Shown piece by piece: positions 1,292 through 24,811 of a stretch of DNA of 32,000 nucleotides; position 1 is the stretch's first letter; each line of letters opens with the position of its first letter. The notes beneath the pieces are model-generated. The model saw only the letters and a program-made list of their open reading frames with translations, was not told where the DNA came from and ran no database searches. Source of the stretch: Pseudoalteromonas translucida KMM 520 (GTDB taxonomy: Bacteria > Pseudomonadota > Gammaproteobacteria > Enterobacterales > Alteromonadaceae); assembly GCF_001465295.1 (NCBI RefSeq), contig NZ_CP011034.1, forward strand, positions 2,280,001 through 2,312,000, given 5' to 3'. Made by a program: the position numbers and the translations under genes.

Positions 1292-1303
1292 TTTAATAAT
1301 GTA

Positions 1304-2167: not shown

Positions 2168-2247
2168 CTTTTCCTCTAGTGTGTCGGATTGACATATAGA
2201 AGACGGATGAATTATTGGTTTATTCCAAAATAAAATAAAAACTTTAA

Positions 2248-2296: not shown

Positions 2297-2379
2297 AGCG
2301 AGAGTCTTTATGACAAAGCGACTAGAGAGCAAGCAACTGCAATTAAAGTTAAAAAACACGGTAAATACCTTCCCTGTAT

Positions 2380-4542: not shown

Positions 4543-4555
4543 AATATCGCCACAA

Positions 4556-4571
4556 CTGTATATAAAAACAG
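4556..4571 (-). promoter_or_regulatory. LexA (SOS) box CTGTATATAAAAACAG, 13 bp upstream of the FAN1-like/exonuclease ATG
   Basis: Exact match to the gammaproteobacterial CTGT-N8-ACAG consensus with an AT-rich centre. Confidence 0.7.
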
Positions 4572-4659
4572 TATCCAGTATTTGCGCTTATTATTCAATC
4601 TTAAAGTTGCAATCAGTAATGGTTATAGTTGCCATATAAAAATAATGTAGAGTCGATAA

Positions 4660-4852
4660 GCACTGAATGTAAAAAGCGACATATTACAAGCCACACTACA
4701 CAAACAAAGCATTGTCATACATTGCAAAGGCGGCACTGACCGCACAGGGGTTGGTAGCTGCACTTATTTTAAATTCTGCAGGTTACACAACAGAAGAAGT
4801 ATACAATCTAGTACAAGGCATTCGCCCTAAAGCACTCACTATAGAGCTGTAA
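4660..4852 (+). pseudogene. Remnant of a Cys-based protein-tyrosine/dual-specificity phosphatase (N-terminally truncated, +1 frameshift)
   Basis: One frame reads ..SIVIHCKGGTDRTG (the HCxxGxxRT P-loop). After a GGGG run at ~4744-4747 the continuation LVAALILNSAGYTTEEVYNLVQGIRPKALTIEL* is in the +1 frame. An in-frame stop at 4657-4659 lies upstream, and there is no N-terminal half. Confidence 0.45.
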
Positions 4853-5072
4853 AAAGAGTGCTTTGAGAATTTTGAGATGTAAGGTAGAAACTGGGGGAGG
4901 GTTTAGCACTATAACTAGTGCTAAAAATACTTTTTGAACAACAGTAAAACCTTATTATTGCAGTTATAAGTATATAAAACTGAAACACTGGTTTACCTAT
5001 TTTATAATTTAATCAAAAGTGACTTTAATCTCAAAAGCTCAATACCTCCTGACACACAAACTTATTATTAAG

Positions 5073-5984
5073 TTACTTGTAAGAAACTTCCGATTTTTTT
5101 ATGGATTGTAATAAGTGATTATACCCACTGCCTAAAAACCTTTTAAAATCTAGAGTATCGGTTTGCAAATTACATTTTGGGCCTAAAATAATACCTTTTA
5201 AGCATGATGGTCTAAACACATGCTCATAAAAAGAAATTATATTTCCATTTACTGTTCTGTATTTTGATTTCATCTCATCATTAGAGTTATAAACGAGTCT
5301 GACCTCATCCTCTTCGCTAAATCCTTCACTTTTGAAGAGCACTGGTGCAGCAAAGAAATTACTACTTACAAACCTCTCTTTCACAGGATCTACTTTTTTA
5401 GATCTGAAAATACTCTGCTCAATTAATTCTTTAATTAATTTAGCACAATATTCATCCTGATCTAGCTTGTTGTAAATAACATCATTAATATATTTAGGAA
5501 ACTCACTTTTATTTTTGATCGACTTTTCAAGCTCTATTTTGGAAAAGGCTAGAGCAACACCTTTACCATCGTCCCCATAAGCTCTCCATTGACTTAATTT
5601 ATCTCCGTTTTTAGAGAAGCAACATATGTGTGGTAGAAGCATATTAGAAACAATTTCTAAAGAAGGTAATATTAACTCAACAAGAGTTCGTTTTGTTAAG
5701 TCTCTCATACCTTCAATAAATTCAGGGTTAGATTCGATGTTAGGGATCACCCTAAGGTGCTGTGTTAAAGGATCTTTTGAATGGTACTTTTCCATACATC
5801 TAATAGTTTCTTCAGCGCTTAGATGAACACTTTCTATTGCTCGTCGGATTAAAGGGGGTAATAGCTTACCTTCTTGACTATCATTCATTTCGGTAATACT
5901 GCTAACCCATAAGCTTTGACTCTGTATAATGCTCATAAATGCTTCAACAGATGTGTAATGATAAATTATATCTTGATCTTTCAT
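5073..5984 (-). CDS. DUF2971-like hypothetical protein
   Basis: The N-terminus IIYHYTSVEAFMSIIQSQSLWVSSITEMNDSQE matches the DUF2971 signature (YHYTS...LW.S....NDP.E) as I recall it. The gene is markedly AT-rich compared with its neighbours. Confidence 0.65.
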   Translation of the reverse strand: MKDQDIIYHYTSVEAFMSIIQSQSLWVSSITEMNDSQEGKLLPPLIRRAIESVHLSAEETIRCMEKYHSKDPLTQHLRVIPNIESNPEFIEGMRDLTKRTLVELILPSLEIVSNMLLPHICCFSKNGDKLSQWRAYGDDGKGVALAFSKIELEKSIKNKSEFPKYINDVIYNKLDQDEYCAKLIKELIEQSIFRSKKVDPVKERFVSSNFFAAPVLFKSEGFSEEDEVRLVYNSNDEMKSKYRTVNGNIISFYEHVFRPSCLKGIILGPKCNLQTDTLDFKRFLGSGYNHLLQSIKKSEVSYK

Positions 5985-6368
5985 GGCTCTTTCATACCTT
6001 TTACTTTAGTATTTTTATTGTAGTTAATGCACTTACTAAAATTTATTTAGGATTCCCCCCTATTTTGCATTTTTATATAAACTTTTAGCAATTTAGCTGC
6101 TTTTCATGGAGCAAAATATTAACCACTAGTTGATCATTAGCTATGAGGTCAAGTTTGATATATTTATATAGTCTCGTTGCAAAGTTAATTGCCAAAATAT
6201 TTGGTACCTATTTCACACTCATTACACCTAACTCTCTTTTGATAAGCAAGTTTACTTTTTAAACATATACCTACTGAATATGTTATCAGTTTATAAACCA
6301 ACGTATTCAGCCATAGCGCTTTACTATATTATGCTCCTTTATATTTAATTTATATTTCAGGGCATATA

Positions 6369-7788
6369 ATGACAACGCACACACCGCCTTCCCACTCAGC
6401 CAACACAGTTGAAAACACCTCTCTTTTTTACGTAATATTTATATCGGCCGTGGCTGCTATTGGTGGCTTTTTATTTGGTTTTGACTCGGGCGTTATTAAC
6501 GGTACGGTATCGGCACTCGGTAATGCATTTAATTCTAGCAGTGTGGCTACGGGCTTTAACGTAGCGTCTGTATTACTTGGCTGTGCCTTAGGTGCGCTTG
6601 CTGCGGGGCCGCTGGCTGATAAGTTTGGCCGCCGTGCAATTATGATCATCACTGCGATTATTTTTGCCATTAGTGCGTTTGGTTCAGGCATTAGCGAAAG
6701 CTCTGCGGAGTTTATTTTTTACCGTTTATTTGGTGGTTTAGGTATTGGTGCTGCATCGGTATTAGCGCCAGCTTACATTGCTGAGGTTGCGCCACCAGCA
6801 CTTCGTGGTCGTTTAGCTACATTACAACAACTCGCTATTGTACTGGGTTTGTTTGCTGCGTTTTTAAGCAACTATTTAATTGCTGATGCAGCAGGTAGCG
6901 CGCAAAATATTTTAATGCTTGATATAGCCGCTTGGCGCTGAATGTTTTGGGCTGAGCTTGTGCCTGCAGTACTGTTTTTAGTGGGTGTGTTGTTTATTCC
7001 CGAGTCGCCTCGTTATTTAGTGGCGCAAGGTAAAGTAGATGATGCAAAAGCGGTATTTAGTAAAATATCGAACGACAATGCCGATGCGCAAATAAGCGAT
7101 GTAAAACGATCCTTGCACAGCGATACAAAGCCAAGTATTCGCGATTTATTTATTGATGGCAGTAAAAAGTACATCCTATTGGGTGGGTGTGGCGCTGAGT
7201 GTATTTCAGCAATTTGTGGGTATTAACATGGTGTTTTATTACGGCTCTGAGCTTTGGCAAGCCGCTGGGTTTGATGAGTCGCAATCACTATTTATAAATG
7301 TATTAGCGGGCACTACTAATATTGTATCGACCTTTATTGCCATTGCCCTAGTAGACAAAGTTGGCCGTAAACCACTGTTACTAGTGGGTAGTATTGGTAT
7401 GTTTATCAGCCTAAGTGCACTTACCTATATATTTGGCAGCGCAGGCCTTGATGAAGCAGGCAAACTTACCCTTAGCGATGACATGGGTGCGTTTGCGTTG
7501 ATTATGGCTAACTTATTTGTGGTATTTTTTGGCTTAAGCTGGGGCCCTATTGTATGGGTATTATTAGGCGAAATGTTTAATAACCGTATTCGAGGTGCAG
7601 CCCTTGCTGTGGCCGCCAGTGCGCAGTGGATAGCTAACTTTGCAATCACTATGACCTTCCCTATAATGCTTGCCAATATAGGCCTTGCCGGTGCATACGG
7701 CTTTTATGCGTTATCGGCACTTATAAGTATATTTTTTGTTGTTAAATACATTAAAGAAACGCGCGGCAAAACGCTCGAATCTATGTGA
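6369..7788 (+). pseudogene. MFS sugar porter (GalP/XylE-like sugar:H+ symporter) disrupted by a nonsense codon and a frameshift
   Basis: Three consecutive ORFs (6369-6941, 6942-7226, 7153-7788) together give a complete sugar-porter sequence. TGA at 6939-6941 sits where the conserved Trp of the WRWMF motif is expected (..AAWR*MFW..). The frame changes between ~7160 and 7226, before VGVALSVFQQFVGIN. Confidence 0.8.
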
Positions 7789-7922
7789 TTTAGATTATAA
7801 ACGGTGATATTAGTCACCAGTAAAAAGTAACGGGTGCTAGCTACTTAGCGCCAAATCAGCAAGTATCAATCGAAATGAAACAAACCGGTTTAGGTGTTTC
7901 TATTGTTTGGGAAATTTAAAAA

Positions 7923-8336
7923 ATGGTAACAGAATTCACCCCAGTATCGGCTGCTATAGGCGGTGCATTAATAGGTATAGCGTGTACGTTATTACTGGTT
8001 TTGTACGGAAAAATTGCAGGCATATCGGGTATTGTTAAGTCTGTATTTGCTAAAGTAAATTCGGGTTCTCGTTGGCAGCTATACTTTATTTTAGGGTTGT
8101 TGTTGGCGGGTGTAGCTGTAAGGGTATTTGCGCCTTCTTTATTAGAGGGCGAATTACAGTTGCCGCCTTGGCTTATTATTGTTGCAGGGCTTTTAGTTGG
8201 CGTAGGTACAACTTTAGCTAATGGATGCACAAGTGGCCATGGCGTGTGTGGCATGTCGCGCTTTTCTACCCGCTCTTGGGTTGCAACATGTACATTTATG
8301 CTCGTCGCCATTATTACAGCAAACCTGGTAGGATAA
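7923..8336 (+). CDS. YeeE/YedE-family membrane protein (sulfur-compound transport component)
   Basis: Four-TM protein with the GCTSGHGVCG motif typical of YeeE/YedE. Confidence 0.8.
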   Translation: MVTEFTPVSAAIGGALIGIACTLLLVLYGKIAGISGIVKSVFAKVNSGSRWQLYFILGLLLAGVAVRVFAPSLLEGELQLPPWLIIVAGLLVGVGTTLANGCTSGHGVCGMSRFSTRSWVATCTFMLVAIITANLVG

Positions 8337-8339
8337 ATA

Positions 8340-8744
8340 ATGAAAGCAATTATTATGGTTGTTATAGGCTTTATATTTGGCTTAGGGCTTATTATTAGCG
8401 GTATGACAAACCCCGCTAAAGTAATTAACTTTCTTACCTATGGAAACCAATGGGACGCAAGTTTAATTATAGTGATGGCTGTTGCCATGCTAATAATGAT
8501 GCTTACGTGGTTATGGGTTGCAAAAAAAGAGAAGCCGCTCCTTTCAAGATCATTTAACTTAAGTGATTTAAAAAAAGTTGATACGCGCTTAATTACTGGC
8601 TCAATACTCTTTGGTTTAGGCTGGGGTTTAAGTGGCATATGCCCAGGCCCTGGCTTGGTTCAATTAGTGTCTCTTAAAATGGAATTTTTGTTGTTTTTTG
8701 CGGCCGTGCTAGGCGGTATGTGGCTCACCAAAAAGCTTACTTAA
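8340..8744 (+). CDS. YeeE/YedE-like partner membrane protein
   Basis: Lies 3 bp downstream of the previous gene. Four TM segments with a GLSGICPGPG motif. This is the typical two-gene split YeeE/YedE arrangement. Confidence 0.75.
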   Translation: MKAIIMVVIGFIFGLGLIISGMTNPAKVINFLTYGNQWDASLIIVMAVAMLIMMLTWLWVAKKEKPLLSRSFNLSDLKKVDTRLITGSILFGLGWGLSGICPGPGLVQLVSLKMEFLLFFAAVLGGMWLTKKLT

Positions 8745-8771
8745 CTCAACGACTCATTAACTAGCGCAGAT

Positions 8772-8797
8772 AAAACGCCCCATATTTGGGGCGTTTT
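8772..8797 (+). terminator. Rho-independent terminator AAAACGCCCC atattt GGGGCGTTTT
   Basis: Perfect GC-rich stem followed by a T-run, 28 bp after the stop at 8744. Confidence 0.7.
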
Positions 8798-8948
8798 GCT
8801 GTATTAAGCCATAAACGCTGTAAGCTTTACCAACGTGCTATGCGCTTTATTACCTCAATAACTTTTACTGTGCCGGGCTTACGCTAACGCGGTGATCCCC
8901 CTCCCCTATAAAATATTTTACTAGAGAACATTTACTGGAACATTTAAT

Positions 8949-8963
8949 TGATACAATATAACA
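8949..8963 (+). promoter_or_regulatory. Candidate Zur box TGATACAATATAACA overlapping a TACAAT -10 element
   Basis: Matches 13 of 15 positions of the palindromic core TGTTATAATATAACA that I recall for gammaproteobacterial Zur. It lies 34 bp upstream of a COG0523 gene, a classic Zur-regulon member. Confidence 0.4.
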
Positions 8964-8996
8964 TACCAACAATTGCAACTTAGTAGACTCAAGTAA

Positions 8997-10196
8997 ATGA
9001 TAAATAAACTGCCCGTCACCGTGTTATCTGGTTTTTTAGGCGCTGGTAAAACAACCGTGCTCAGCCATATTCTTAATAATCGCCAAAGTAAAAAAGTCGC
9101 CGTTATAGTTAATGATATGAGCGATATAAATATTGATGCCGATACCATTAAAAGTGGTGTGTCGCTAAATCACAGCGACGAAAAACTCGTTGAAATGAGT
9201 AATGGCTGCATTTGCTGCACTCTACGAGAGGATTTACTTGTTGAAGTTGGCAAACTTGCAAAAGAAGGTCGCTTTGATTACCTCGTCATTGAATCAACGG
9301 GTATATCTGAGCCACTCCCGGTTGCCGAAACATTTACCTTTGCTGATGATAACGGTATTTCACTTGGTGATGTTGCAACCCTTGATACGATGGTAACGGT
9401 AGTTGATGCGGTTAACTTTTTAAATGATTACGAACAAGCAAACGATTTACAAGATACTGGCGAATCGTTAGGAGAAGACGACGAGCGCAGTGTCGCTGAC
9501 TTACTTGTTGATCAGGTTGAATTTGCCGATGTTATTTTAATTAGTAAAACTGATTTAATTACAAACGATGAATTAAATCGACTTACTGCCATTTTAAATA
9601 CGCTTAACACTCAAGCCAAAATTATTCCTATTTCAAACGGCAATATTAATATTAATGAAGTACTCAACACCGGCCTGTTTAATTTTGAGCGAGCCCAACA
9701 AGCTCCGGGCTGGCTTAAAGAAATGCGCGGTGAGCATATTCCCGAGACCGAAGAGTATGGTATTAGCAGCTTTAATTACACTGCGCGCCGCCCATTTGAT
9801 CCTGAAAAGTTTTATAACTTTCTTCATAGCACCGAACAATTTGGCAAGCTTATTCGCTCAAAAGGTTACTTTTGGCTGGCTACTCGGCCTTTATTTTGCG
9901 GGCAATGGAGCCAAGCAGGCGGTATTGCTCACTACGAATTTGCTGGCATGTTTTTTAAAGCCATCCCTCAAAAAGAGTGGCCTACAGAGCCCGAGCTGCT
10001 TGCTGACATAAATAATAAATGGGTAGAACCCTTTGGCGATATGCGTCAAGAGCTGGTGTTTATTGGTCAATCTTTAAATCAACAAGCGATGATTAAAGCG
10101 CTTGATGACTGCTTATTATCAGAAGATGCCGTACTTAAGGGTAAGGACTTTTGGAGAACCTATAACGACCCGTTTCCTATTTGGGAGGAAGAATAA
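8997..10196 (+). CDS. COG0523-family (CobW/ZigA/YeiR-like) metallochaperone GTPase
   Basis: Carries the P-loop [12 protein letters not shown], the metal-binding CICCTLRED (CxCC) motif and a CobW C-terminal domain. Confidence 0.9.
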
Positions 10197-10885
10197 TGAA
10201 CGCACTTGCCCCTTTAACTCACTCTACACCAGCTACAATGCAGCTATTGCGTAAAGCGGCTAAAAGCACTAATGCTAATGTACTTCCGCAAATTTATAAC
10301 GAAGATACCAATATTGTTATTTGGCAAAGAAGCACAGCCGAAAAACTAACAAAAGCAGTTAATATACTCATTGCCATCAGCGCGTTAAAACCATTAGAAC
10401 TTGCTGTATCGCCCAATGATGCTTTTGAGCAGTTAATAAAGGCGCTTAAGCCAGAAGATAATAATAGTGATGAGGTTAATACTCTTTGTGAAGACATTGC
10501 CTTACTTGTTGAAATGTTTTGCTGCCTGTGTGATTTAAAGCGCGCAGGTTTAAGACTAAAAGTATTAGATAAACCCATGTGCCCGCGTTTTCATGTAGAC
10601 AAAATTCCGTGCCGATTAGTTACAACCTATCACGGTGTTGCTACGCAGTGGTTAAATCACAGCGATGTAAACCGCTCAAAACTCGGTGCGGGTAATTTAG
10701 GTAAACCAGATGAAGAGTCTGGCTTATTTAAAAGCTTAAGTAATATTAACCAGCTACAGCAAGGTGATGTTGCCCTGCTTAAAGGAGAGTACTGGGATGA
10801 CAACGAAGGTGCAGGTTTGGTGCATCGCTCACCACCGGTAGCTGCAAACGAGCAACGCTTATTACTCACCCTAGATTTTATTTAA
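10196..10885 (+). CDS. Conserved hypothetical protein, probably DUF1826-like, translationally coupled to the COG0523 gene
   Basis: The ATG at 10196 overlaps the upstream TAA (TAATG) and follows GGAGGAAG. The track start at 10181 is a TTG inside the upstream gene. The DUF1826 assignment comes from my memory of typical COG0523 neighbours and is not verified. Confidence 0.55.
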   Translation: MNALAPLTHSTPATMQLLRKAAKSTNANVLPQIYNEDTNIVIWQRSTAEKLTKAVNILIAISALKPLELAVSPNDAFEQLIKALKPEDNNSDEVNTLCEDIALLVEMFCCLCDLKRAGLRLKVLDKPMCPRFHVDKIPCRLVTTYHGVATQWLNHSDVNRSKLGAGNLGKPDEESGLFKSLSNINQLQQGDVALLKGEYWDDNEGAGLVHRSPPVAANEQRLLLTLDFI

Positions 10886-11005
10886 TACAAGTAATGTTTT
10901 ATAAGCGACGTTAATTTAAGTTTGATTTTAGAGGCAGCTTAAGTAATCAATTAGTACTCAGTATTAATTGATTACTTAGATAATTATTTAAATAGGAACA
11001 TGTTT

Positions 11006-11160
11006 CTAAATTTCTTTTAAGCCCCTATTTATTGCCACTAAATCATCGCCTGTTAGTGTGCCTGCGGCTTGCTTTAATGCTATATACGTTGCAATACCTG
11101 GCACCACTTGGTTATAAGAGGTAATAACTGAGCGTGTAATTACACGGTAATTTGTTTCTA
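11006..11160 (-). pseudogene. C-terminal remnant of a TolC-family outer-membrane efflux protein
   Basis: The minus-strand translation LETNYRVITRSVITSYNQVVPGIATYIALKQAAGTLTGDDLVAINRGLKEI* resembles the TolC C-terminus (..INQLNIKSALGTLNEQDLLALNNAL..). There is no upstream body. Confidence 0.4.
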
Positions 11161-11199
11161 GATCTTAGCTTGCTGATACATAAAATACGCGTGCTAGAT

Positions 11200-11412
11200 C
11201 AGCAAACTAGCGATACGGGCTCAGCTGTTGCGGTTATTCAATTTTGTTCAATGATTGCAGGAGCAACCGGCATGATGCTGGTATCTATTCGCCCAGATGA
11301 GCTTATAAGTGACTTAGGTATTATTCAGTTAAGTATTGGCGCTATTGCTTTGGTTTTATGGTTACTGGTAAAAAATAAATCGTATGTAATAAACAACCTA
11401 TATAAAACTTAA
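11200..11412 (+). pseudogene. C-terminal remnant of an MFS (Bcr/CflA-like) transporter
   Basis: The track ORF 11152..11412 ends ..DTGSAVAVIQFCSMIAGATGMMLV...LSIGAIALVLWLL, which looks like the last two TM helices of a Bcr/CflA pump. No N-terminal 300 aa are present. Confidence 0.4.
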
Positions 11413-11506
11413 ATAGGTAATGGCGTGCTTTTTTCAATAATTAGCCAGCACTTAATGCCTTTTAACACTCAATACTAAGTGACTAATTAATTGTGTAAAG
11501 TAGCGC

Positions 11507-11534
11507 TAAAAAAACGCCCCTAAAAGGAGCGTTT
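11507..11534 (-). terminator. Rho-independent terminator (minus-strand AACGCTCC tttta GGGGCGTT + T7)
   Basis: Stem-loop plus U-run about 57 bp downstream of the stop at 11591. Confidence 0.6.
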
Positions 11535-11590
11535 AATTAAACCCAAAACAGATTAACTGTATGGATTGGTGCAATTTGGAATTATATTTA

Positions 11591-13084
11591 TTAGGCTTTT
11601 TTCATACTGCCTTGCTCTTCAAGGCGAATATGCCAGCTAAACGCTTCCTCTAGTAAATGAGGTGTATGTCCGCCTCGCTTACAAGCGCGCTCATAGTAAT
11701 CTAGCATGGCGTCACGGTAATCTGGGTGCACACAGTGCTTAATAACTTGTACAGCACGTTCACGTGGCGCTAAGCCGCGTAAATCTGCTAAGCCTTGCTC
11801 GGTTACTAATATATCAACGTCATGTTCGTTATGATCAACGTGGCTTACCATAGGCACTACACTCGAAATAGCGCCATCTTTAGCTATCGACTTAGTAACA
11901 AATATCGCTAAATGCGCATTACGTGCAAAGTCACCCGAGCCTCCAATACCATTCATCATGCGAGTACCACAAACGTGGGTTGAGTTTACGTTACCGTACA
12001 TATCAAACTCAAGCGCAGTATTAATTGCCACTATGCCTAAACGACGTACTATTTCAGGATGATTCGATACTTCTTGCGGACGTAACACTAACTTATCTTT
12101 ATATTCTGATAGGTTATTAAATACTTTTGCGTTACAACGCTCTGATAATACAATTGAACTGCCTGAAGCAAATTTAAGTTTACCGGCATCAATTAAATCA
12201 AAGGTCGAATCTTGTAGTACTTCTGAGTACATTGTTAAATCTTCAAAATCAGAATCTAACAATCCCATCATTACCGCGTTAGCAATATTACCAATGCCAG
12301 CTTGTAATGGCCCTAAGTTTTCTGCCATACGCTTTTGTGCTACTTCTTCTTTAAAAAAGCTCACTAAGTGGCTGGCAATAGCCGCTGTATCTACGTCAGG
12401 GTCGGTAACGGTTGAAAACGAATCGCTCTGATTAGTAAAAACAATGCCAACAATTTTAGCAGGGTCAATTGGAATAGCCGTGCTACCAATACGATCATCT
12501 ACTTTAGTTAAAGGAATAGGTTGGCGCACAGGGCGATACGAAGGTATATATATGTCATGCAAGCCTTCAAGTTCAGGGCTGTGCAACATATTTATTTCAA
12601 TAATCACTTCTTTAGCAAAAATAGCAAAACTTGCAGAGTTTCCTACCGAAGTAGTAGGCACAATATGGCCTTCTTCGGTAATGGCTACCGCTTCAATAAC
12701 CGCCACATCAGGCATAGTTAATTGGTGATTGCGCAACTGCTCAACGGTTTCTGATAAATGCTGATCAATAAACATTACTTCGCCGTTATTAATCGCTTTA
12801 CGTAATGTGCTATCTACTTGAAAAGGCATACGGCGGGCTAGCACACCCGCTTCTGTAAGTAGTTTATCTAAATCATTACCTAACGACGCACCGGTCATTA
12901 GGTTTATTTTAATTGGATTATTTTTAACGCGCTTAACCAGTGCTCTTGGCACGGCTTTAGCTTCACCGGCACGAGTAAAGCCACTCATGCCTACTGTCAT
13001 TCCATCTTTAATAAATTGGCTAGCTTGTTCTGCTGACATTACTTTTTGGTGCAGATTGCTATTGCGGATACGTTCTAACTGCAT
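11591..13084 (-). CDS. Acetyl-CoA hydrolase/transferase family protein (succinate/acetate CoA-transferase type)
   Basis: Full-length 497-aa ORF. The N-terminus (SAEQASQFIKDGMTVGMSGFTRAGEAKAV) and the motif MNGIGGSGDFARNA are typical of the Ach1/Cat1/AarC family. Confidence 0.9.
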   Translation of the reverse strand: MQLERIRNSNLHQKVMSAEQASQFIKDGMTVGMSGFTRAGEAKAVPRALVKRVKNNPIKINLMTGASLGNDLDKLLTEAGVLARRMPFQVDSTLRKAINNGEVMFIDQHLSETVEQLRNHQLTMPDVAVIEAVAITEEGHIVPTTSVGNSASFAIFAKEVIIEINMLHSPELEGLHDIYIPSYRPVRQPIPLTKVDDRIGSTAIPIDPAKIVGIVFTNQSDSFSTVTDPDVDTAAIASHLVSFFKEEVAQKRMAENLGPLQAGIGNIANAVMMGLLDSDFEDLTMYSEVLQDSTFDLIDAGKLKFASGSSIVLSERCNAKVFNNLSEYKDKLVLRPQEVSNHPEIVRRLGIVAINTALEFDMYGNVNSTHVCGTRMMNGIGGSGDFARNAHLAIFVTKSIAKDGAISSVVPMVSHVDHNEHDVDILVTEQGLADLRGLAPRERAVQVIKHCVHPDYRDAMLDYYERACKRGGHTPHLLEEAFSWHIRLEEQGSMKKA

Positions 13085-13393
13085 ACTACTGAGCCCCTTT
13101 TTAATTTGGCGTTATTTTAAGTATTACAGCGCACTTCGCAATCTAGACTTAGGTCGCATTTACTAAATTAAGTTACGCAAACACAGAGTAAAGTGCCTTG
13201 GTGCTAGTAATCTACTTTAATGAGCGAGTATTTATATAAATTTAATGTGTTTGATATAAACCTAAGTTTTAAGTGAATATTTAAAATGCGGGATTAAAAT
13301 TGGAAAAAAGTAGAATAATGAGAGAAAAATAAATTGAATATAATTGTAGTTTAAAAAGTGGCTTAATTATAAGTAATTAGTTTATACACCCAA

Positions 13394-13498
13394 TGTTGTT
13401 TGAAGTATAAGTTGGCATAAGTACAAACGAGCTTATTGTGCTACAGCTCCGTTAGTGTAGTGTATGTTGGCATAATATTGAAGTAAAAATTGGCATAA
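13394..13498 (+). repeat. CAST left end: terminal TGTTGTTT (13394-13401) plus three direct 18-bp TnsB-type repeats (13403-13420 AAGTATAAGTTGGCATAA, 13458-13475 TAGTGTATGTTGGCATAA, 13481-13498 AAGTAAAAATTGGCATAA)
   Basis: Repeats read directly from the sequence; consensus wAGTrwAwrTTGGCATAA. The layout is a terminal site, a gap, then two adjacent sites. The TGTTG terminus mirrors the Tn6677 left end (TGTTGATG-CAACCATAAAGTGATA...) as I recall it. Confidence 0.6.
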
Positions 13499-13594
13499 TG
13501 TTACCAAATGCTGGTTTTATAAAGCCAACCACATAAAAATACTGTCAAGTTTAGTTGGCTGCTATGTGCCATAAACGGAAGATTATAACCTTAG

Positions 13595-13753
13595 TCACTT
13601 TGCATGATAACGAGTTATTTCATTTTCACATTTTTCCCTTAACTCAGGCGTATCCACATTAGCTACTCTCACACTTATATTCTTACCAAAAATTCGGAGC
13701 ATATCAGAATCAAGGTTGACTCTAAACGCGCCTCCATCGCAAATGCTTACAAT
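13595..13753 (-). pseudogene. Possible thermonuclease (SNase-like) family remnant
   Basis: The minus-strand frame reads ICDGGAFRVNLDSDMLRIFGKNISVRVANVDTPELREKCENEITRYHAK*, resembling the DGDT...RL.GIDAPE..+C..E core of small thermonuclease-family proteins. It has no start codon and is truncated at about 52 codons. Confidence 0.3.
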
Positions 13754-14020
13754 TTAAGTGACGTTCAAAACCCCATAAGTTTTTGCTACCGACAATGGTA
13801 CAAATAGAAGAGTTCAAATGGGTATAGTATATTTCATAATGTAGGCTTGATTAAAAATTATTAATTGGTGAAAATATAGCATTGTACAGAAATAGTTATG
13901 CATGGATCGCTTAAAACTAATTAAACTTGACTGAATACTATTAGTCAATTTAGCTCTCCAATCATTAAGCTTTTCCAAGTCTAAATCAGTCTAACTTTAA
14001 AAATAATTAAGGAAAATTAA

Positions 14021-14734
14021 ATGGCATTAGTTAAATGTAAAGAGTGCGGTGAAGAGGTTAGTAATAAAGCTAAATCTTGCCCCAAGTGCGGTGCAAAAGC
14101 TTCTAAGAAAACATCGTTACTCACATGGCTTGTTCTAATCCTAATAATTCTAGGAGTTTATGTATCAGGTCAATCAACAGATAGGGCAACTAAACCATCT
14201 ACAAAAGTAAGCAGTTCAGATAAAGGTGAGACTATAAAATCCGAAAAAGTACAAAAAGCTGCACCACCAAAGCCAGTTTGGGTTACGTCAGTTTCAAAAG
14301 ATGAGATGACAGGTAAATTCACTGCTTTTGCTCATTCCCCTAGAGCTTATCCCTCGAAAAAAATGGGGTTTCCATACCATGATGTTTATAGTTATATGGG
14401 CGTGGGCTGTAGTGCAGGTAAAGAATGGGTGTATTTAGGCTTTAATGATTCCCCAAATTTATCAAAAGATACTACAAAAAGTGGTTACAACTTAATTAAA
14501 ACACGTATTAAGTGGAACGATAATGTTGAGGACATTTCACTTACCCAAGATTGGGGTGCAAAATTTTTACATTTTAATGATGATTCGATAGTAATTTCAA
14601 AAATAGAAACTTCTAATACAGCGCTTGTTGAACTTCAATGGCATGGTGAGCAAGCGACATATTTCAAATATTCTCTTAGTGGTTCATCAAAAGCGATCTC
14701 TGAAATTAGAGGGAAGTGTTCTAAAAATAAATAA
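14021..14734 (+). CDS. Zinc-ribbon, single-pass membrane protein of unknown function
   Basis: N-terminal CxxC-N10-CxxC (KCKECGEEVSNKAKSCPKCGA), then one TM helix (LLTWLVLILIILGVYV) and a ~170-aa extracytoplasmic domain. An AAGGAAAA RBS precedes the ATG. Confidence 0.6.
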   Translation: MALVKCKECGEEVSNKAKSCPKCGAKASKKTSLLTWLVLILIILGVYVSGQSTDRATKPSTKVSSSDKGETIKSEKVQKAAPPKPVWVTSVSKDEMTGKFTAFAHSPRAYPSKKMGFPYHDVYSYMGVGCSAGKEWVYLGFNDSPNLSKDTTKSGYNLIKTRIKWNDNVEDISLTQDWGAKFLHFNDDSIVISKIETSNTALVELQWHGEQATYFKYSLSGSSKAISEIRGKCSKNK

Positions 14735-14795
14735 GCGCTAAAGATTTTTAACCGTGTGATAAAAGTTATATCACATGAATAAGTCTTAACTTAAT

Positions 14796-14835
14796 CTGTC
14801 AGGTTTGATTTTTAGGTTTTGATCAAATCTGACAG
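14796..14835. terminator. 14-bp stem hairpin (CTGTCAGGTTTGAT ... ATCAAATCTGACAG) between convergent genes
   Basis: Read directly from the sequence, with one G-U pair. No clean U-run follows on either strand, so function as a bidirectional terminator is tentative. A smaller 7-bp hairpin lies at 14755-14775. Confidence 0.4.
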
Positions 14836-14881
14836 CCGCCTATGTACCATCAGCGGACTGTAGTAGCCTTAGTCTCTTGTA

Positions 14882-15091
14882 TTAGTTATTTTCAGGCAGT
14901 TTCTTAATAACTAAAAAGTAATAAACGAGGTATCCTAACCAAGAAATAAAGAATGACATTAAGAACCAAACGACTTTGTTAGTGCCTTCTGCTTTTTTAG
15001 ATACTAAAGCTAGAATCCAAGGCAAAGCCCCCACAAAGAAAACAAATAGCAAAATAAATATTTGCCATAGACTAATTCCACCTAACCCCAT
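14882..15091 (-). CDS. Small two-TM membrane protein (PLDc_N-like?)
   Basis: 69-aa ORF with two hydrophobic helices. GGAG-like sequence lies upstream. The family call is tentative. Confidence 0.45.
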   Translation of the reverse strand: MGLGGISLWQIFILLFVFFVGALPWILALVSKKAEGTNKVVWFLMSFFISWLGYLVYYFLVIKKLPENN

Positions 15092-15172
15092 ATTAACTCC
15101 TTTATAACTTAAAACATCCGTTCTTTACTGCTCACATTGTACCAAAATTAATTATTACTTGCCTTGTATTTT

Positions 15173-15179
15173 CAGTAGC
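15173..15179. repeat. IS21 target-site duplication, left copy (CAGTAGC)
   Basis: An identical 7-mer directly abuts both IS termini. Confidence 0.6.
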
Positions 15180-15242
15180 TATCTAGCGTCAATTAACTTG
15201 GCCGGTTCCGCGTCAATTATCTTGGCCGGTTGATACCGAATT

Positions 15243-15995
15243 TTATTTACTCTTATTGAGCGCTGTTTTGCGCCGGTAACTGTCACCTTCGCAATGAATA
15301 ATCGTGGCATGATGAACCAAACGATCGATCGCCGCGACAGTCATTGTTGAATCTTCAAATAGTTCATCCCATTGCTCAAATGATTTGTTTGATGTGATGA
15401 TCATGCTGTGTCGCTCATAGCGATGGGCTATCAATTCAAACAGCACGCTCGTTTCCTGTTCCGTTTTTCGAACGTAACCAACGTCATCAACGATTAATAA
15501 GCTGTATTTATCGAGCTTTACAAGTTCATCTTGCAAGCGTAAATGTCGCTTTGCTTGCTGGAGTTGTTGAACAATCGTTGACGCGGCAACAAACTTAACT
15601 TTATGGCCCTGCTCGATAAGGCCATAACCGATACTACTGGCGATATGCGTTTTACCAAGACCACTGGCGCCAAATAGCAATATATTGCCACCGTACTTCA
15701 ACCAATCCGGCTGATTTATTAAATCAGCAACAAGGGGCTTACTAACCCCATCAACAAGGGTAAAGTCGAAGCTGCTAAGGTGTTTACCCACTGGCAATTT
15801 TGCATCTTTTAAAAGCCGCTGAAGGCGTTTGTCATCGCGTGTCGCAAGTTCAACATGACACAGCTCAGACAAGTATTGCTGCGGGCTCCATTGTTCTTCT
15901 ATCGCTTTTTTGCCCAGAGTATTCCACTGTTGAAGCATGGTGCTAAGCTTTAATTGTTTCAGCATTAAAGGTAACGAGGCCGTGAAGTTATCCAT
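15243..15995 (-). CDS. istB: IS21 helper ATPase IstB
   Basis: Walker A LLFGASGLGKTH and Walker B LLIVDDVGY. Overlaps the istA stop by 8 nt. Confidence 0.9.
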   Translation of the reverse strand: MDNFTASLPLMLKQLKLSTMLQQWNTLGKKAIEEQWSPQQYLSELCHVELATRDDKRLQRLLKDAKLPVGKHLSSFDFTLVDGVSKPLVADLINQPDWLKYGGNILLFGASGLGKTHIASSIGYGLIEQGHKVKFVAASTIVQQLQQAKRHLRLQDELVKLDKYSLLIVDDVGYVRKTEQETSVLFELIAHRYERHSMIITSNKSFEQWDELFEDSTMTVAAIDRLVHHATIIHCEGDSYRRKTALNKSK

Positions 15996-17481
15996 GTAGG
16001 CCTCCCGGTATCATGCTGCTATAAGCGCTCAAGCTGTGTTGCTTTATTGTCATTGTGGGTCTGTTTGATGCAATCACTAAAAATTGCGCTTCACATTCTC
16101 GGATGGCCGGTAATTGTCGCTGAGTAATTGACGCTGCTACAAATCGCCCTAATTGACGCTCACACCCACTTTGTTTCGCTAAATGGAGCAGTTTTACCAT
16201 GTAATAGCTCGCTTCATCCGCTAAAAGCTGGGCATTAACGTATTCCCAAATAGCTTTGTAATTGTCGTTTGGGAGTAAGTCGTCACGTAGTTGTGAGTAG
16301 CGAAATGCCAATGGTTTTTTAACCAGTGCGTCAATAACATGCAAGTAACTAATATTACGTGCACGGCACCCTTTAGAAGCATAGACACGCGCTAACGTTT
16401 GAACTAAATCGCTGCCATAGCGCAGCTCTAAACGGTTGTCATATAAACGAACAAGTAATCGGCTACCAATAAGGCGTGACGGGACGCTATAGGTAACACG
16501 TTTCAATGAAATAGTACTCGTACGTGACACCGTTAGGTAATGCTCGGTGTAATTGACGCTCATCGCCCGTGGTAAAGCGTGTAATTGTCGCTGCTCTACT
16601 GCGTATTTATCACTTACACGGCGATTACGGCGAGCAACAATGTCGGCAATAAACGATTCATAGACTTCTCTTGTCTGAAAGTCATAACTACCACGGATTT
16701 TTAATGCTTGCTCCAGTTGCGATTTAAGATGCCCATGAGGGCTCTCAATAGCCCCATTTTCATGCGCAATACCGCGGTTATTGCGAGTCGCTTTAAAGCC
16801 ATAATGGATAACTAGCTCATTAAAGCGCTCTGTAAAATCATTATCATTAGTATGATTACGATAGGCGGCACTCAGACTGTCTGTACGCACTTCTTTAGGC
16901 ACACCGCCGGCTGCTTTAAATGCGTTTTGTACGCCATCAGAAAAAGCAGCAAAGCTTTCACCGCCGTAAATTACTTGGGCGTAAGCCTAGCCACTGGCGG
17001 GCATACGATAATGAAACAACATATGCTCAAGGGGTTCACTAGCAATGGTAACGGGTGACTTCACATGTGTGAAATCACATATACCTAATAGGCCATACTC
17101 GTGTGTTTGCAGGAATACGACCTCTTTGCTTGAGCCATACAGTGCCCGCCATTTATGAATTCGACGCTCTAATGTACGCCGTGAGCTCGGGTTAAATTTG
17201 TCGGTGTGAAACTCGCAAAGATGATCAAAAATTCCCACCGGAGTTAACGTTGCATCACCTTGAAGTAGAGGGACAACAATACTGTCCCAGATAGACTCAA
17301 GTGGATCTATACGCGTTCGCCATTGGCGTTTATTAGACAATGGCTGCTCATCCAGTTTATCAATGCGCCTTGCTGAACGTTCAGAAATACCTGCTTTCGC
17401 AGCCGCGATAACTTGGCTATTACGCTTTCTATGTTTCATATAAATAGTGACCTGCTGATCAGTGATTCGTGTTCCCGGCAC
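15988..17481 (-). pseudogene. istA: IS21 transposase IstA interrupted by a single in-frame amber codon
   Basis: Track ORFs 16987..17481 (HTH N-terminus) and 15988..16902 (DDE core) are in the same frame. The stretch between them reads through as ..RMPASG*AYAQVIYGGESFAAFSDGVQNAFKAAGGVPKEVRTD.., with TAG at 16987-16989. Confidence 0.85.
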
Positions 17482-17574
17482 AGTGAACTCCTCCGTTCTG
17501 CTGTACCGAACCTTATCAGATCAACCGGCCAAGATAATTGTCGCTAGACCGGCCACCGTAATTGTCGCTTAATA

Positions 17575-17581
17575 CAGTAGC
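17575..17581. repeat. IS21 target-site duplication, right copy (CAGTAGC)
   Basis: See the left copy. Confidence 0.6.
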
Positions 17582-17978
17582 ACTCTAAACTGTTGTTTGC
17601 CTGCTTAATGCTCCAAGCAAAACTTCGTAAAAGTGCCAAAAACAGTCATTCAGGTATAACTCGTTTCTGCTCCTTTATGAGTTAACGTAAATACTCTAAG
17701 GTCGCCTTTGAGCGAATACCGGTCATTGATATTGGCTAAATATCGTAGTTAATTGATTGGTCAAACTGTTGTTTGCGCACATATTCATGAAAATGAGCGA
17801 CGCGCGCATATTGGTTCATTTAACTTTACTTTAAAGCTTAAGAGACATAGTGATAGTAATATCTTAGGTTATTTGTTAAAACTATATTATATAATGTAGA
17901 AAAATGAATGTTTAGTCGGCAAAAATATGCATATGCGCGATGAGCGCACAATTAAATTATTAGGTAATTAGGGAAAAC

Positions 17979-18962
17979 ATGAAACCTATCGAGAAAGCAA
18001 AAGCACAAAAGCTTGTGCTTAAGCTAGAATCTGGCAACTTCGACGAAAACGATATCGATAATATCTTCATGCGTTTGAGGGCATACTCTCATGGAAATCG
18101 GATATTTCGTGAAATCGCCGACTTCGTTGCTCACAATGATGAGAGGAATCAAGGGATATCGGTTGAGTCATTAGAGGCATTTTATCTAAGTTTTAAATAC
18201 TTTCTAGAGTATGTCTCACCGAAGAAATCGCTAGACATAGGAAGCCCGTTTCCACTTTACGTGAAAAAATTGATGAAATATCAGATTGATAAGTGCAAGG
18301 ACGCAGATCTGAAAGAAAAGTTTAATGTTACTAAGCAGCGCTTAAAATCAAGAGTTGATTCAATTTTTTCTGAAGACAAGAAAAATAAAAAAGCCTTTAT
18401 GAAGAAGCCGAAAATATCTGACGACACGATTGGAGCGCTTCAGCACATATTAGGTTTCATAGGTAGCCACCCTGCTTTCGATCAAGAGCAAGTGATTTTA
18501 GAGCTTCTAGCAGTAATCAAAGCGAATAAACTGCATGTAAATGAAGCTGAATTACTAAAGCATTCTGACAAAATAGCTGCTTGTGTAGCACTTCTCTTGC
18601 ATGACGCCACGTTTGAATATGGAGGTCACAAGCAGGGTTTCTGTAAGATCTCTTGCGAGAAGACATCTATATCTTACAATCAGAAATTTGTAGATAAAGA
18701 CGGGAACCCATCAGAGCATAAAGAATCATTTGGCAATATTCAAGTTCAAGGTCACGTAGTATTAGAGAAAGATGGAAAAGATCTAACAGTATGTTATCCA
18801 TTGATGACAACGAACCTATCCGTGGAGGACTGGTGCGATGACGATATGTTTGTTGTTGAGCCAATCACTGAAGATCACCCAAACTACTTACATAGAAAAG
18901 TTATCTTTGATCAAGATCTTTGTTTTACTGAGGGCGGTAAAATTGGGGTGATCCATACCTAA
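17979..18962 (+). CDS. Hypothetical protein (327 aa), no motif recognised
   Basis: Long ORF with GGGAAAA upstream of the ATG and AT-rich cargo-type composition. I recognise no catalytic or binding motif. Confidence 0.6.
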   Translation: MKPIEKAKAQKLVLKLESGNFDENDIDNIFMRLRAYSHGNRIFREIADFVAHNDERNQGISVESLEAFYLSFKYFLEYVSPKKSLDIGSPFPLYVKKLMKYQIDKCKDADLKEKFNVTKQRLKSRVDSIFSEDKKNKKAFMKKPKISDDTIGALQHILGFIGSHPAFDQEQVILELLAVIKANKLHVNEAELLKHSDKIAACVALLLHDATFEYGGHKQGFCKISCEKTSISYNQKFVDKDGNPSEHKESFGNIQVQGHVVLEKDGKDLTVCYPLMTTNLSVEDWCDDDMFVVEPITEDHPNYLHRKVIFDQDLCFTEGGKIGVIHT

Positions 18963-19132
18963 CGCCCGCAACACCAATGTCTGATATTGGCACAAAGCCG
19001 TCCTTTGGCTCTAACTCATCTTTGTCCAAAAATGAGTTTACCCGACCATCTGCTTCTCGCTCTAACTCGAATATCAGCTGGATAGTAGAGGTGCTATTAT
19101 TAAATATAACCTTTTCTGGCTTTGAGGTATCT

Positions 19133-19582
19133 ATGCCTAGCGATATTCAACCTAGTGCTAATAATAAATTTGTAGATATACTTAGCAATGGAAAAGTTAA
19201 TTTAAGCTCAAACCCTTTAGATGAAATTGAATTAATTCAGCGTGGTTTAGATATAAAAAGTGTTGAGAAATTTAGGCTTGAGTTAGATTGGGATATTCAA
19301 TCCTTTGCTAAAGCAATTGGTACAAATACTAGAATTTTCGAACGTCATAAAAAAGAGCATAAACGTTTAAATGCAACTTTGAGCGAAAATACCTTTGAGT
19401 TGGCTCATTTAGCATCAACTTGTATTGATTACTTTGAAAATATTGAACGATGGAATAAATGGCTAAATACATGCTCCTTACAATTTAGCTCTAAAACACC
19501 TTTAACATTTGTAAATACAATTGCGGGTAGAAGGTTAATTAGGAACGTTGTTAATAGCCTTAAACACGGTTATAACGCTTAA
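19133..19582 (+). CDS. Xre-like/DUF2384 (MbcA/ParS-type) antitoxin-like protein
   Basis: I prefer the ATG at 19133 (GAGG 7 nt upstream) over the track start at 18977, which adds low-complexity sequence. The HTH-like middle (DIQSFAKAIGTNTRIFERHKK) and the C-terminus (TPLTFVNTIAGRRLIRNVVNSLKHGY) resemble the DUF2384 toxin-binding domain. Confidence 0.55.
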   Translation: MPSDIQPSANNKFVDILSNGKVNLSSNPLDEIELIQRGLDIKSVEKFRLELDWDIQSFAKAIGTNTRIFERHKKEHKRLNATLSENTFELAHLASTCIDYFENIERWNKWLNTCSLQFSSKTPLTFVNTIAGRRLIRNVVNSLKHGYNA

Positions 19583-19613
19583 AAAGACCCCAGCGTTTGC
19601 TGAGATCTTTTTA

Positions 19614-19762
19614 TTTACCCTCTGCCTTTTCGGCAGTTAAAAGTTACAATTTGTGGTTGTTTACTTCCCGGCCTAACTTCAGCTGCCTACTCGGCAGTTC
19701 ACACTTAGCGGAGTTGACGTCAAAAATTCTAAATATTTCCAGCTGCCTACTCGGCAGTTCAC
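19614..19762 (-). CRISPR. Type I-F CRISPR array with 3 repeats and 2 spacers, transcribed on the minus strand from a ~117-bp AT-rich leader below cas6f
   Basis: Minus-strand sense. R1 19762-19735 is GTGAACTGCCGAGTAGGCAGCTGGAAAT. Spacer 1 19734-19703 (32 nt) is ATTTAGAATTTTTGACGTCAACTCCGCTAAGT. R2 19702-19675 is GTGAACTGCCGAGTAGGCAGCTGAAGTT. Spacer 2 19674-19642 (32-33 nt) is AGGCCGGGAAGTAAACAACCACAAATTGTAACT. R3 19641-19614 is TTTAACTGCCGAAAAGGCAGAGGGTAAA, which is divergent. The repeat closely resembles the Tn6677 repeat GTGAACTGCCGAGTAGGTAGCTGATAAC as I recall it. Confidence 0.9.
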
Positions 19763-19879
19763 TATTAAAAATAGTTTAAATTCCTATAAACACCAAACTG
19801 TTAAACGTATTTAAATTATTTACCCTTATTTTTAATCAATCAGATAACTCATTGAAAATTAATGGGTGTTTTAAAACTA

Positions 19880-20482
19880 TTATAAAAGGGTATTTAAAGA
19901 AGGAACCGTACCTAGAAATATTTGATTTGTAGCAAAGCCATAATTGTTAAACTGATTTTTTATGGATTCAGCATTTTCATTTTTTTGTATATGCAAAACA
20001 TAACTTTGACCATTGCCTTTGCTTGATACGGGTATTGAATGAAAATGGCCTATGTCCTTTGCCTCAAATTTATATTCAGGGTTGTAAACTTCGCCTCTGG
20101 CTTCAGCTCGTTTTTTAGCTCGCTTTAATCGCCTTTGCTTTTCGCCAACAAATGCTTTTGCTACCGATTGGTTGCGAACAAACATGACTTCGCTTTGGTT
20201 TACTGGTACTTCAAGTATTTTTGATAAGCCAAATAACTTGTCATGAGCCATCATCTCAAAATAGCTTTGCTGAGATAGATTGGTTAATTGCTTTTTATTT
20301 GTTGATACAAACGCTAATTCATTACCTATTGTTTGCTCATTCCATTTAGGAAAGCACACACCAATATTACTTATTTCACGTGAGCTCATAAACCCATGCA
20401 AAATACCGATACAACGCCCAGCAAGAAGGCTTACATCACAACTTTGGGGTAAATAAGTAATGGTAAAATAATAGCGCTTCAA
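19880..20482 (-). CDS. cas6f: Cas6f (Csy4) crRNA endoribonuclease, CAST type
   Basis: 200 aa. The N-terminus MKRYYFTITYLPQ...CIGILHGF...NIGVCFPKW parallels the Vibrio Tn6677 Cas6 (MKWYYKTITFLPE...LHGF...NIGVSFPLW). There is a 4-nt ATGA overlap with cas7f, and the gene is followed by the array. Confidence 0.85.
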   Translation of the reverse strand: MKRYYFTITYLPQSCDVSLLAGRCIGILHGFMSSREISNIGVCFPKWNEQTIGNELAFVSTNKKQLTNLSQQSYFEMMAHDKLFGLSKILEVPVNQSEVMFVRNQSVAKAFVGEKQRRLKRAKKRAEARGEVYNPEYKFEAKDIGHFHSIPVSSKGNGQSYVLHIQKNENAESIKNQFNNYGFATNQIFLGTVPSLNTLL

Positions 20483-21507
20483 CCTTTACTCCTTTGAAAC
20501 AAGCCACCTTTGATCAGCACTGCCGCAATAAAGTGAATTGAGTTTGATTGTTCACTTTGCTCTAAACCATGCTTTTCCATGTGTTTAATATGCAAAGCAA
20601 TGCGCGGGAGTAATGAATAAAAGTCTGAATGGCTCTTAGGTGTTCTGTGTGCAACTAATATTTGCTTATCTGCGCCATACTCGTGAGTGCGTAAAGGTTT
20701 GTAACCTTCCTCATACCAATCATCAATAGTTTGGATAGCAGCCCCTACTTTTTGTGAATTCAAACTTGCTGCTTTTTTATCGCCTACTTGAGTATATGCA
20801 AGTTGTTTAGATGACATACCTTGTTCAACATTATCTACAAACTTTTGACTAGGATGAACCTCTTGGCTAAATGCATTTTTAATTTTTGCGGTTATATCTA
20901 AATAACAATAATTTTGAGGATTGCTTAGCCCTTCTTGAATAGATTCTGACAACGTTAATAATGCCGTTTGATTATTTTGCCAGTTGCCTTGCCATTTTAG
21001 TTTTTGTGCACCTTCAACAACAATCGGGGCTGCGTGCTCAGTAAGGATTTCAATATCAACATTTGGTGATTGGCGGTTACGCCAAAGCCAGTTGCCCATC
21101 AGTATATTTTTAGCATAGCGCGTTGCAACTTCATTAAGGCCATTGTGTTTTTTATAGGTTTCGAAAAACCGTTTTAACCAATAAATAACTTTAGGGTCAT
21201 CACATACATGTGGCTCAATACAATTAGCCTCAACCCTGAGTGAAAAACGACAAAATAGCTCATTTACCGTTGGAGGTACATAACACACATCAATTGTTTG
21301 AGGGTTTCCAAACGCGAGATCTTGTGGCGCTAAATTTTTAGCCACATTTTGCTTTTGATACGCATCGCCAAACCCTGACTTCTGCCCAACTAATTTATTT
21401 TGCTCTATTTGTAGCGGTTCAAAGTCAGACTCTGGTGTTTTATAAAAAAACACCGCTTTACTGGGTGAGAGCGAACGCGTGTAACTTAAGTGCCGAGGTA
21501 ATTGCAT
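20479..21507 (-). CDS. cas7f: Cas7f (Csy3) backbone subunit
   Basis: 342 aa. The N-terminus MQLPRHLSYTRSLSPSKAVFF and the C-terminus ..HFIAAVLIKGGLFQRSKG parallel Tn6677 Cas7 (MKLPTNLAYERSIDPSDVCFF ... HFLMANLIKGGMFQHKGD). Confidence 0.85.
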   Translation of the reverse strand: MQLPRHLSYTRSLSPSKAVFFYKTPESDFEPLQIEQNKLVGQKSGFGDAYQKQNVAKNLAPQDLAFGNPQTIDVCYVPPTVNELFCRFSLRVEANCIEPHVCDDPKVIYWLKRFFETYKKHNGLNEVATRYAKNILMGNWLWRNRQSPNVDIEILTEHAAPIVVEGAQKLKWQGNWQNNQTALLTLSESIQEGLSNPQNYCYLDITAKIKNAFSQEVHPSQKFVDNVEQGMSSKQLAYTQVGDKKAASLNSQKVGAAIQTIDDWYEEGYKPLRTHEYGADKQILVAHRTPKSHSDFYSLLPRIALHIKHMEKHGLEQSEQSNSIHFIAAVLIKGGLFQRSKG

Positions 21508-23558: not shown

Positions 23559-23561
23559 AAG

Positions 23562-24770: not shown

Positions 24771-24811
24771 TTTAGATTAAAAGTAATACTTAGGTCAAGC
24801 TTAAAGAGAAA

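Follow-up and report, generated by a model that had tools for sequence, protein, structure and literature searches.

The closest described systems are two CASTs of Pseudoalteromonas. PtrCAST (from P. translucida KMM520; Yang et al., NAR 2021) has the published ends TGTTGTTTGAAGTATAAGTTGGCATAAGTACAAACGA and TGTTGTTTGAAGTATAAGTTGACATATC; in E. coli it transposes with target-site duplications and a strong RL orientation, 86.7% of its insertions fall at 48 bp, and it has no preference for a PAM and accepts guides with mismatches (PMC8464060). The ends of PseCAST are built from an 8-bp terminal repeat and 19-bp TnsB-binding sites, separated by gaps of 36 and 4 bp on the left and of 2 and 3 bp on the right. 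PseTnsB binds its own BS1 together with the terminal repeat in EMSA and cryo-EM, and its readout of the terminus and of BS1 has been described (PMC13598128). Elements of the I-F3b branch are described as using ffs or rsmJ as att site, as carrying atypical repeats and private guides with mismatches, and as ambiguous in their PAM (PMC11406308). An IHF consensus, WATCARNNNNTTR, located between the sites L1 and L2, is conserved in 20 I-F CASTs (Walker et al., PMC10201428).

The 32,000-nt stretch of Pseudoalteromonas DNA analysed here (the window) carries, at 13394-13498, what is almost certainly the left end of a ~22-kb type I-F3b CAST of the PtrCAST/PseCAST group, inserted downstream of ffs. It is a typical left end for a CAST group that is already known; its terminal sequence has been published and shown to be functional in PtrCAST. 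The pentamer CCCAA directly adjoins the terminus (direct reading; context ACAC CCAA|TGTTGTTT GAAGTATAAGTTGGCATAA), and the layout inward from 13394 is 8 + 19 + 36 + 19 + 4 + 19 nt, with the 19-bp sites defined as for PseCAST. The end and its host flank are made up as follows.

11591-13084: scpC, the host gene to the left of the end (NCBIfam equivalog, 904 bits).
13389-13393, no strand: left copy of the target-site duplication, CCCAA (TTGGG in the ffs orientation); single TTGGG in the empty site, and right flank of the sibling element on contig L001.
13394-13401, plus strand: 8-bp terminal repeat TGTTGTTT with its 5'-TGT terminus, the predicted TnsB strand-transfer site; invariant in an alignment of relatives (A1) and matching the PtrCAST end.
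13402-13420, plus strand: predicted TnsB-binding site L1, GAAGTATAAGTTGGCATAA; repeat search, consensus scan, 12-end alignment, PtrCAST 37/37.
13421-13456, plus strand: L1-L2 spacer of 36 bp with the conserved block TTATTGTGCTACAGC (13433-13447); length invariant in 12 left ends.
13457-13475, plus strand: predicted TnsB-binding site L2, GTAGTGTATGTTGGCATAA; repeat search, consensus scan, 12-end alignment.
13480-13498, plus strand: predicted TnsB-binding site L3, GAAGTAAAAATTGGCATAA, 4 bp past L2; repeat search, consensus scan, 12-end alignment.

The first-pass annotation had placed the terminus at 13394 and had described three 18-bp repeats, the first flush with the terminus and the others 55 and 78 bp further in. 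The terminus is read directly at that position. A window scan with the 18-mer wAGTrwAwrTTGGCATAA finds it with 0 mismatches at 13403-13420, 13458-13475 and 13481-13498, each time on the plus strand and with start-to-start distances of 55 and 23 nt, as had been described; an independent repeat search returns the same three-copy family at the same spacings. The first site is flush with the terminus when it is taken as 19 bp long, whereas the 18-mer is set off by one base, G13402. TTGGCATAA occurs 3 times in the 32-kb window (both strands searched) against 0.76 expected, and all three copies fall inside 87 nt on one strand (p ~5e-6 for three randomly placed occurrences). The 8-mer TGTTGTTT alone is not rare, with 8 copies in the window, so that it is the context and not the 8-mer that defines the terminus. 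The window showed no further copy of the repeat and no inverted end; other matches to the consensus need 3 mismatches, which is the chance expectation, and the window therefore holds no second end. A search of the window against Rfam gave no match at gathering score, so that no curated RNA overlaps the left end, and plasmid searches with the left end and with CRISPR spacer 1 gave no match.

An empty site fixes the boundary. Two ENA metagenome contigs, L026 and L027, encode the ScpC that comes closest to the window's in the protein database (P0001, 99% identical); the proteins listed there for named Pseudoalteromonas reach at most 93% identity to the window's ScpC. In both contigs a complete ffs (Rfam RF00169, 73.5 bits) is followed by ...GCCACCCAAATTCCTCATTTGGGTGTATAAACTAATTACTTATAATTAAGCC... 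and then by scpC. At the junction, ffs...CATTTGGG-TGTATAAAC...scpC, these contigs have one TTGGG and nothing of 13394 onward. An insertion boundary and a 5-bp duplication are classically proved in just this way, by a very close relative that has a single pentamer and is free of everything from 13394 inward. The empty site places the limit between backbone and CAST where the first-pass annotation had drawn it; the persistence of 13394-13503 in relatives devoid of the CAST, which had been named as evidence against that limit, is not seen in either contig.

The other end is seen in a sibling element. The reverse transcriptase of the window is also encoded on L001, a 5.6-kb Logan contig that is 98.4% identical to window 29597-31999 over 2403 nt. 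Its right end begins at position 91 and is followed by tnsA (178-828), tnsB (821-2644) and tnsC (2647-3648); the gene calls for tnsC, tnsB and tnsA match Pfam TniB, Mu-transpos_C and TnsA-like_N, respectively. The right end reads TGTTGTTT GAAGTATAAGTTGACATAT TT GTACTAAAAGATGGCATAA ATTG GAAGTATAAGGTGGCATAG, that is, three packed sites located 87 nt upstream of tnsA, with start-to-start distances of 21 and 23 nt, as against the left-end gaps of 36 and 4 bp. An inverted terminus with three to four packed repeats past tnsA had been anticipated; the sibling has it, with three sites and not four. The terminal repeat and L1 of the window are identical to the terminal repeat and R1 of this right end at 25/26 nt. 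Outside the sibling's terminus lie ...CCTCATTTGGG and the 3' part of the SRP RNA gene, and the adjoining pentamer is TTGGG, the reverse complement of CCCAA. The two flanks meet on the empty site: L001 1-90 matches L026 1050-1139 exactly (the ffs flank), the reverse complement of window 13085-13393 matches L026 1135-1440 with 92.9% identity over 309 nt (the scpC flank), and the two alignments overlap by exactly 5 bp, the TTGGG at L026 1135-1139.

Searches for the window's own right end, beyond 32000, by way of exact proteins (reverse transcriptase, ScpC, Cas6, EruA, Cas7) gave no match to it and yielded only short sibling contigs. Projection from L001 predicts a right terminus near 35,160, where the plus strand would read ...TATGTCAACTTATACTTCAAACAACA and then CCCAAATGAGGAATTTGGGTGGCAGTCTTACCAGCCACATC (the 3' end of ffs, reversed); it is expected to end in ...AAACAACA, followed by CCCAA and the ffs 3' end. 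That the left end of this copy is paired with such a right end and that CCCAA is duplicated there is thus probable, judged from the empty site, from the sibling and from a rule that holds family-wide (below).

The site of insertion is itself structured. A hairpin, ACCCAAAT-TCCTC-ATTTGGGT, directly follows ffs, and the insertion falls within its 3' arm (L026 1118-1142; L001 71-98). In the occupied site the stem regains its last base pair through the first T of the element's TGT, so that the hairpin beside ffs stays intact after insertion.

These features can now be set against those of the known systems. The published left end of PtrCAST is identical to window 13394-13430 at 37/37 positions, the comparison covering those 37 nt of the PtrCAST left end, and the PtrCAST right end matches the sibling right end at 27/28. 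The two elements are also alike in genus, in right-end-proximal orientation, in the 48-bp distance, in PAM laxity and in tolerance of guide mismatches. PseCAST (Tn7016, likewise of Pseudoalteromonas; structures 30jv and 30ga) has a left-end layout identical to that of the window, with its 8-bp repeat, 19-bp sites and gaps of 36 and 4 bp, and its right end, like the sibling's, has three packed sites; the right-end gaps are 2 and 4 bp in the sibling, in the register chosen here, and 2 and 3 bp as published for PseCAST. The termini of PseCAST and of the window share TGT, G2 and G5, whereas C6, C9 and C13, which are listed as contacts in the PseCAST paper, are T6, G9 and T13 in the window end.

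TnsB and TniQ of PseCAST are clear homologues of those studied here. The sibling's TnsB matches PseTnsB at 1.6e-172, Tn6677 TnsB at 5.4e-84 and Tn7 TnsB at 4e-22, and the best PDB matches of the window's TniQ are 7u5d (9.4e-70), which we take to be the Tn6900 TniQ structure, and the PseCAST TniQ (30ga; 6.6e-69). Tn6900 (AsCAST), of the I-F3b ffs/rsmJ branch, comes from a different genus but resembles the window element in its ffs att site, its diverged, atypical repeat, its private guide with mismatches and its ambiguous PAM. Tn6677 (VchCAST, I-F3a) and Tn7 have in common with the window element the TGT terminus, an 8-bp terminal sequence, a 5-bp duplication, tnsA beside the right end, and three spaced left sites as opposed to packed right sites. 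Both are more distant by TnsB, and Tn7 differs further in its four overlapping 22-bp right sites and its glmS/TnsD targeting. The Tn7/Tn6677 left-end architecture proposed in the first-pass annotation is retained in so far as this is a Tn7-like end, but the nearest relatives are PtrCAST and PseCAST, with their I-F3b character and ffs att site.

The rest of the element, as far as the window holds it, is read on the minus strand from 32000 toward the left end: tnsC, a retron, an XRE regulator, EruA, the tniQ-cas operon, a CRISPR array and cargo with an IS21-family element.

31604-32000, minus strand: tnsC, 3' part, cut by the window edge; aligns with L001 tnsC.
30066-31250, minus strand: reverse transcriptase of an Ec48-type retron (NCBIfam).
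29303-30118, minus strand: retron effector, Ec48-type, 2TM (NCBIfam).
28905-29213, minus strand: XRE-type regulator (NCBIfam).
24812-28852, minus strand: EruA NACHT antiphage protein (NCBIfam, 1240 bits).
23562-24743, minus strand: tniQ (Pfam/NCBIfam TniQ).
21507-23558, minus strand: cas8/5 fusion (Pfam/NCBIfam; operon assignments TniQ, Csy2, Csy3, Csy4).
20479-21507, minus strand: cas7 (Pfam/NCBIfam; same operon assignments).
19880-20482, minus strand: cas6 (Pfam/NCBIfam; same operon assignments).
19615-19762, minus strand: type I-F CRISPR array with three repeats (repeat search).
15180-17574, minus strand: IS21-family element, within the cargo that separates the left end from the CRISPR array, and no part of the end itself (55-nt inverted repeats).

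The order of genes toward tnsA makes the end at 13394 the tnsA-distal one and therefore "left" in Tn7 nomenclature. The presence of tniQ, cas8/5, cas7, cas6, the CRISPR array and the 3' end of tnsC within the window bears out the identification of the element as a CAST; the four operon genes are full-length ORFs with full-length profile matches, and the ORFs scanned in 13394-32000 gave no match to Cas1, Cas2 or Cas3. The cargo between tnsC and tniQ (24812-31250) is a defence island, in which no retron ncRNA was found at Rfam gathering score. The IS21-family element has imperfect 55-nt inverted repeats flanked by a 7-bp duplication, CAGTAGC, at 15173-15179 and 17575-17581. Its istB is intact (15243-15995); its istA is split into two ORFs (16987-17481 and 15988-16902) and so may be frameshifted.

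Beside the CRISPR array lies a gene pair (17979-19582) encoding a 327-aa protein that lacks a convincing Pfam match and then a 201-aa protein with an Xre/MbcA/ParS antitoxin C-terminal domain; it may be a toxin-antitoxin or defence pair in an unusual order. The window's cargo differs at this place from that of a sibling element on L051 6239-9114 (from the same sample as L001; 98%-identical), which has CBASS-like genes past its CRISPR array, for a DncV-like nucleotidyltransferase and a ThiF-family protein. Differing cargo behind near-identical CAST cores points to rapid cargo turnover. In the host flank, window 8745-11437 compared with L026 3099-3163 has ~2.7 kb extra, holding a CobW-family GTPase (8997-10196) and a DUF1826 protein (10181-10885); this indel is unrelated to the CAST.

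Independent insertions show what is kept and what varies. A scan for ends with TGTTGTTTGAAGTNNNNNTTGRCATA, one genome per species, returned 23 loci, 22 of them from Pseudoalteromonas, and a metagenome scan with the right-end sequence returned 17 further right ends; the relatives from both scans are all <=92% identical to the window in tnsC. TGTTGTTT is identical at left and right ends in the 22 Pseudoalteromonas genome loci and in the 17 metagenome loci. Right-type ends from the genome scan all adjoin ffs (verified with Rfam RF00169 in L014 and L010), as do 16/17 of the metagenome right ends; left-type ends from the genome scan have varied flanks. The single metagenome right end off ffs (L035 87-134) has the flank ...CAACTCCAATGGCCATGTATGG|TGTTG and may represent a guide-directed insertion into another target.

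The 5-bp duplication, which the first-pass annotation had predicted from one end, is the rule of the family: in 7/7 Pseudoalteromonas genomes with both ends retrieved, the pentamers outside the two ends are reverse complements of each other. The register of the duplication varies among these seven (CCAAA in 4, CCCAA in 2 and ACCCA in 1). Thus, it is insertion that makes the duplication, and the element begins exactly at TGT.

Twelve left ends align gaplessly for the first ~116 nt (alignment A1), with the layout 8 + 19 + 36 + 19 + 4 + 19 nt in 12/12. Kept across them are the terminus, in each site the stretches GAAGT and TTGRCATAA, and in the spacer a block, with L1 nearly invariant; their flanks diverge directly outside TGT. 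Conservation past L3, to ~13571, is seen in a subgroup of elements only. A fourth site in that region (13499-13571) was considered and dropped, the sequence there not fitting the site consensus and its conservation being confined to the subgroup.

Could the element be what it appears to be and yet be immobilised, its repeats a relic rather than working TnsB sites? The IS21-family insertion in the cargo speaks for a copy that has been resident for some time, but it lies in non-essential cargo; tniQ, cas8/5, cas7 and cas6 are full-length, the end has the invariant geometry and all the invariant bases of its 12 relatives, and its first 37 nt are those of an active PtrCAST end. Immobilisation is, on balance, improbable.

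Two of the relatives have more complicated ends. In P. arabiensis a degenerate end, TGTCGTTTGAAGTATAAGATGACAT, adjoins the left end (L005 ~1316-1345), and in strain H105 a right end and a left end, both truncated, are fused to each other (L003 6500-6640); both cases point to elements that are tandem or decayed at this att site. Since such arrangements occur at ffs, the end at 13394 might be a genuine Tn7-like left end that belongs to some other or older element of a tandem array, or that is an orphan remnant. Against this, 13499-32000 contains no other end-like repeat or terminus on either strand, so that nothing separates the left end from the cas and tns genes; moreover, the 25/26 agreement with the sibling's R1 and the 37-nt identity with the functional PtrCAST left end tie it to this element. 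An origin in a different element is very improbable indeed. The weakest proposal, that the repeats are host regulatory sites (operators or iterons) with a chance likeness to a transposon end, draws on their location between genes, in AT-rich DNA 310 nt before the start codon of scpC, and can be dismissed, because the region upstream of scpC in the closest relatives is free of them and because they travel with the element, at 5-bp-duplication boundaries, into different flanks.

With 13394-13498 taken as the left end of the resident I-F3b CAST, the choice of target also finds its counterpart in the window. The array consists of a repeat (19735-19762), a spacer (19703-19734), a repeat (19675-19702), a homing spacer (19643-19674) and an atypical repeat (19615-19642); the repeats begin GTGAACTGCCGAGTAGGCAGCTG..., and the last of them is strongly diverged, TTTTAACTGCCGAAAAGGCAGAGGGTAA. 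The homing spacer, AGGCCGGGAAGTAAACAACCACAAATTGTAAC, which lies beside the atypical repeat, matches ffs at 24/32 positions (L026 1056-1087). Its mismatches fall at positions 6, 12, 13, 15, 18, 24, 25 and 30, and thus include all five of the every-sixth positions. In type I Cascade complexes every sixth position of the guide is not base-paired; with positions 6, 12, 18, 24 and 30 left out, the effective complementarity would be 24/27. The PAM-side bases of the ffs protospacer are TC, and 48 nt separate the protospacer end from the first duplicated base. The identity of ffs is confirmed by Rfam RF00169 both beside right ends and in the empty site. Homing spacer, att site, PAM side and distance all fit the described I-F3b biology.

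The layout of the end, its boundary, the duplication, the ffs att site, the homing spacer and the gene set are all observed in sequence. From them a course of events can be outlined, in which TnsB binding to L1-L3, the cleavage chemistry and the present mobility of this copy are taken over from experiments on PtrCAST, PseCAST and VchCAST. TnsB protomers would bind the 19-bp sites L1-L3 with the 8-bp terminal repeat on the left and the three packed sites on the right; the 36-bp L1-L2 gap, set against the packed right-end sites, would make the ends asymmetric and so fix the orientation. The target would be chosen by a TniQ-Cascade complex whose atypical homing crRNA (spacer 19643-19674) pairs with ffs, and TnsC would recruit the transposase so as to place the right end ~48 bp past the protospacer. 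The ends would pair, TnsA cutting the 5' strands and TnsB cutting at the TGT/ACA termini, and the joining of the 3' ends by TnsB to staggered target positions would generate the 5-bp duplication CCCAA.

In the L1-L2 spacer the window end departs from VchCAST, whose spacer matches the IHF consensus perfectly; the window end has no such perfect match. The best match to the IHF consensus in the window spacer, AACGAGCTTATTG, has 2 mismatches, and most relatives have 3-4 mismatches there; a scan of L1-L2 spacers for the consensus found no match conserved in the Pseudoalteromonas clade. What is conserved, where VchCAST and PseCAST carry their IHF site, is a 15-nt block, TTAYTGRGCTACAGC (window 13433-13447; A1 columns 50-64), which does not match the IHF consensus. 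Because the spacer conserves this block and not an IHF site, the left end may be controlled otherwise than by IHF: it is conceivable, if rather doubtful, that it is bent or licensed by a different factor encoded by host or element, or that the block provides extra TnsB contacts, either of which would amount to a variant way of controlling the architecture of the left end.

On its left side the mobile element is now delimited exactly, at 13394. The DNA from that base to past position 32000 can therefore be taken as transposon and 1-13393 as host backbone, and EruA, the Ec48-type retron, the antitoxin-like gene pair and the IS21-family element are thereby assigned to the transposon's cargo. For the PtrCAST/PseCAST group, which is used in genome engineering, the locus adds a further natural copy whose empty site is documented.
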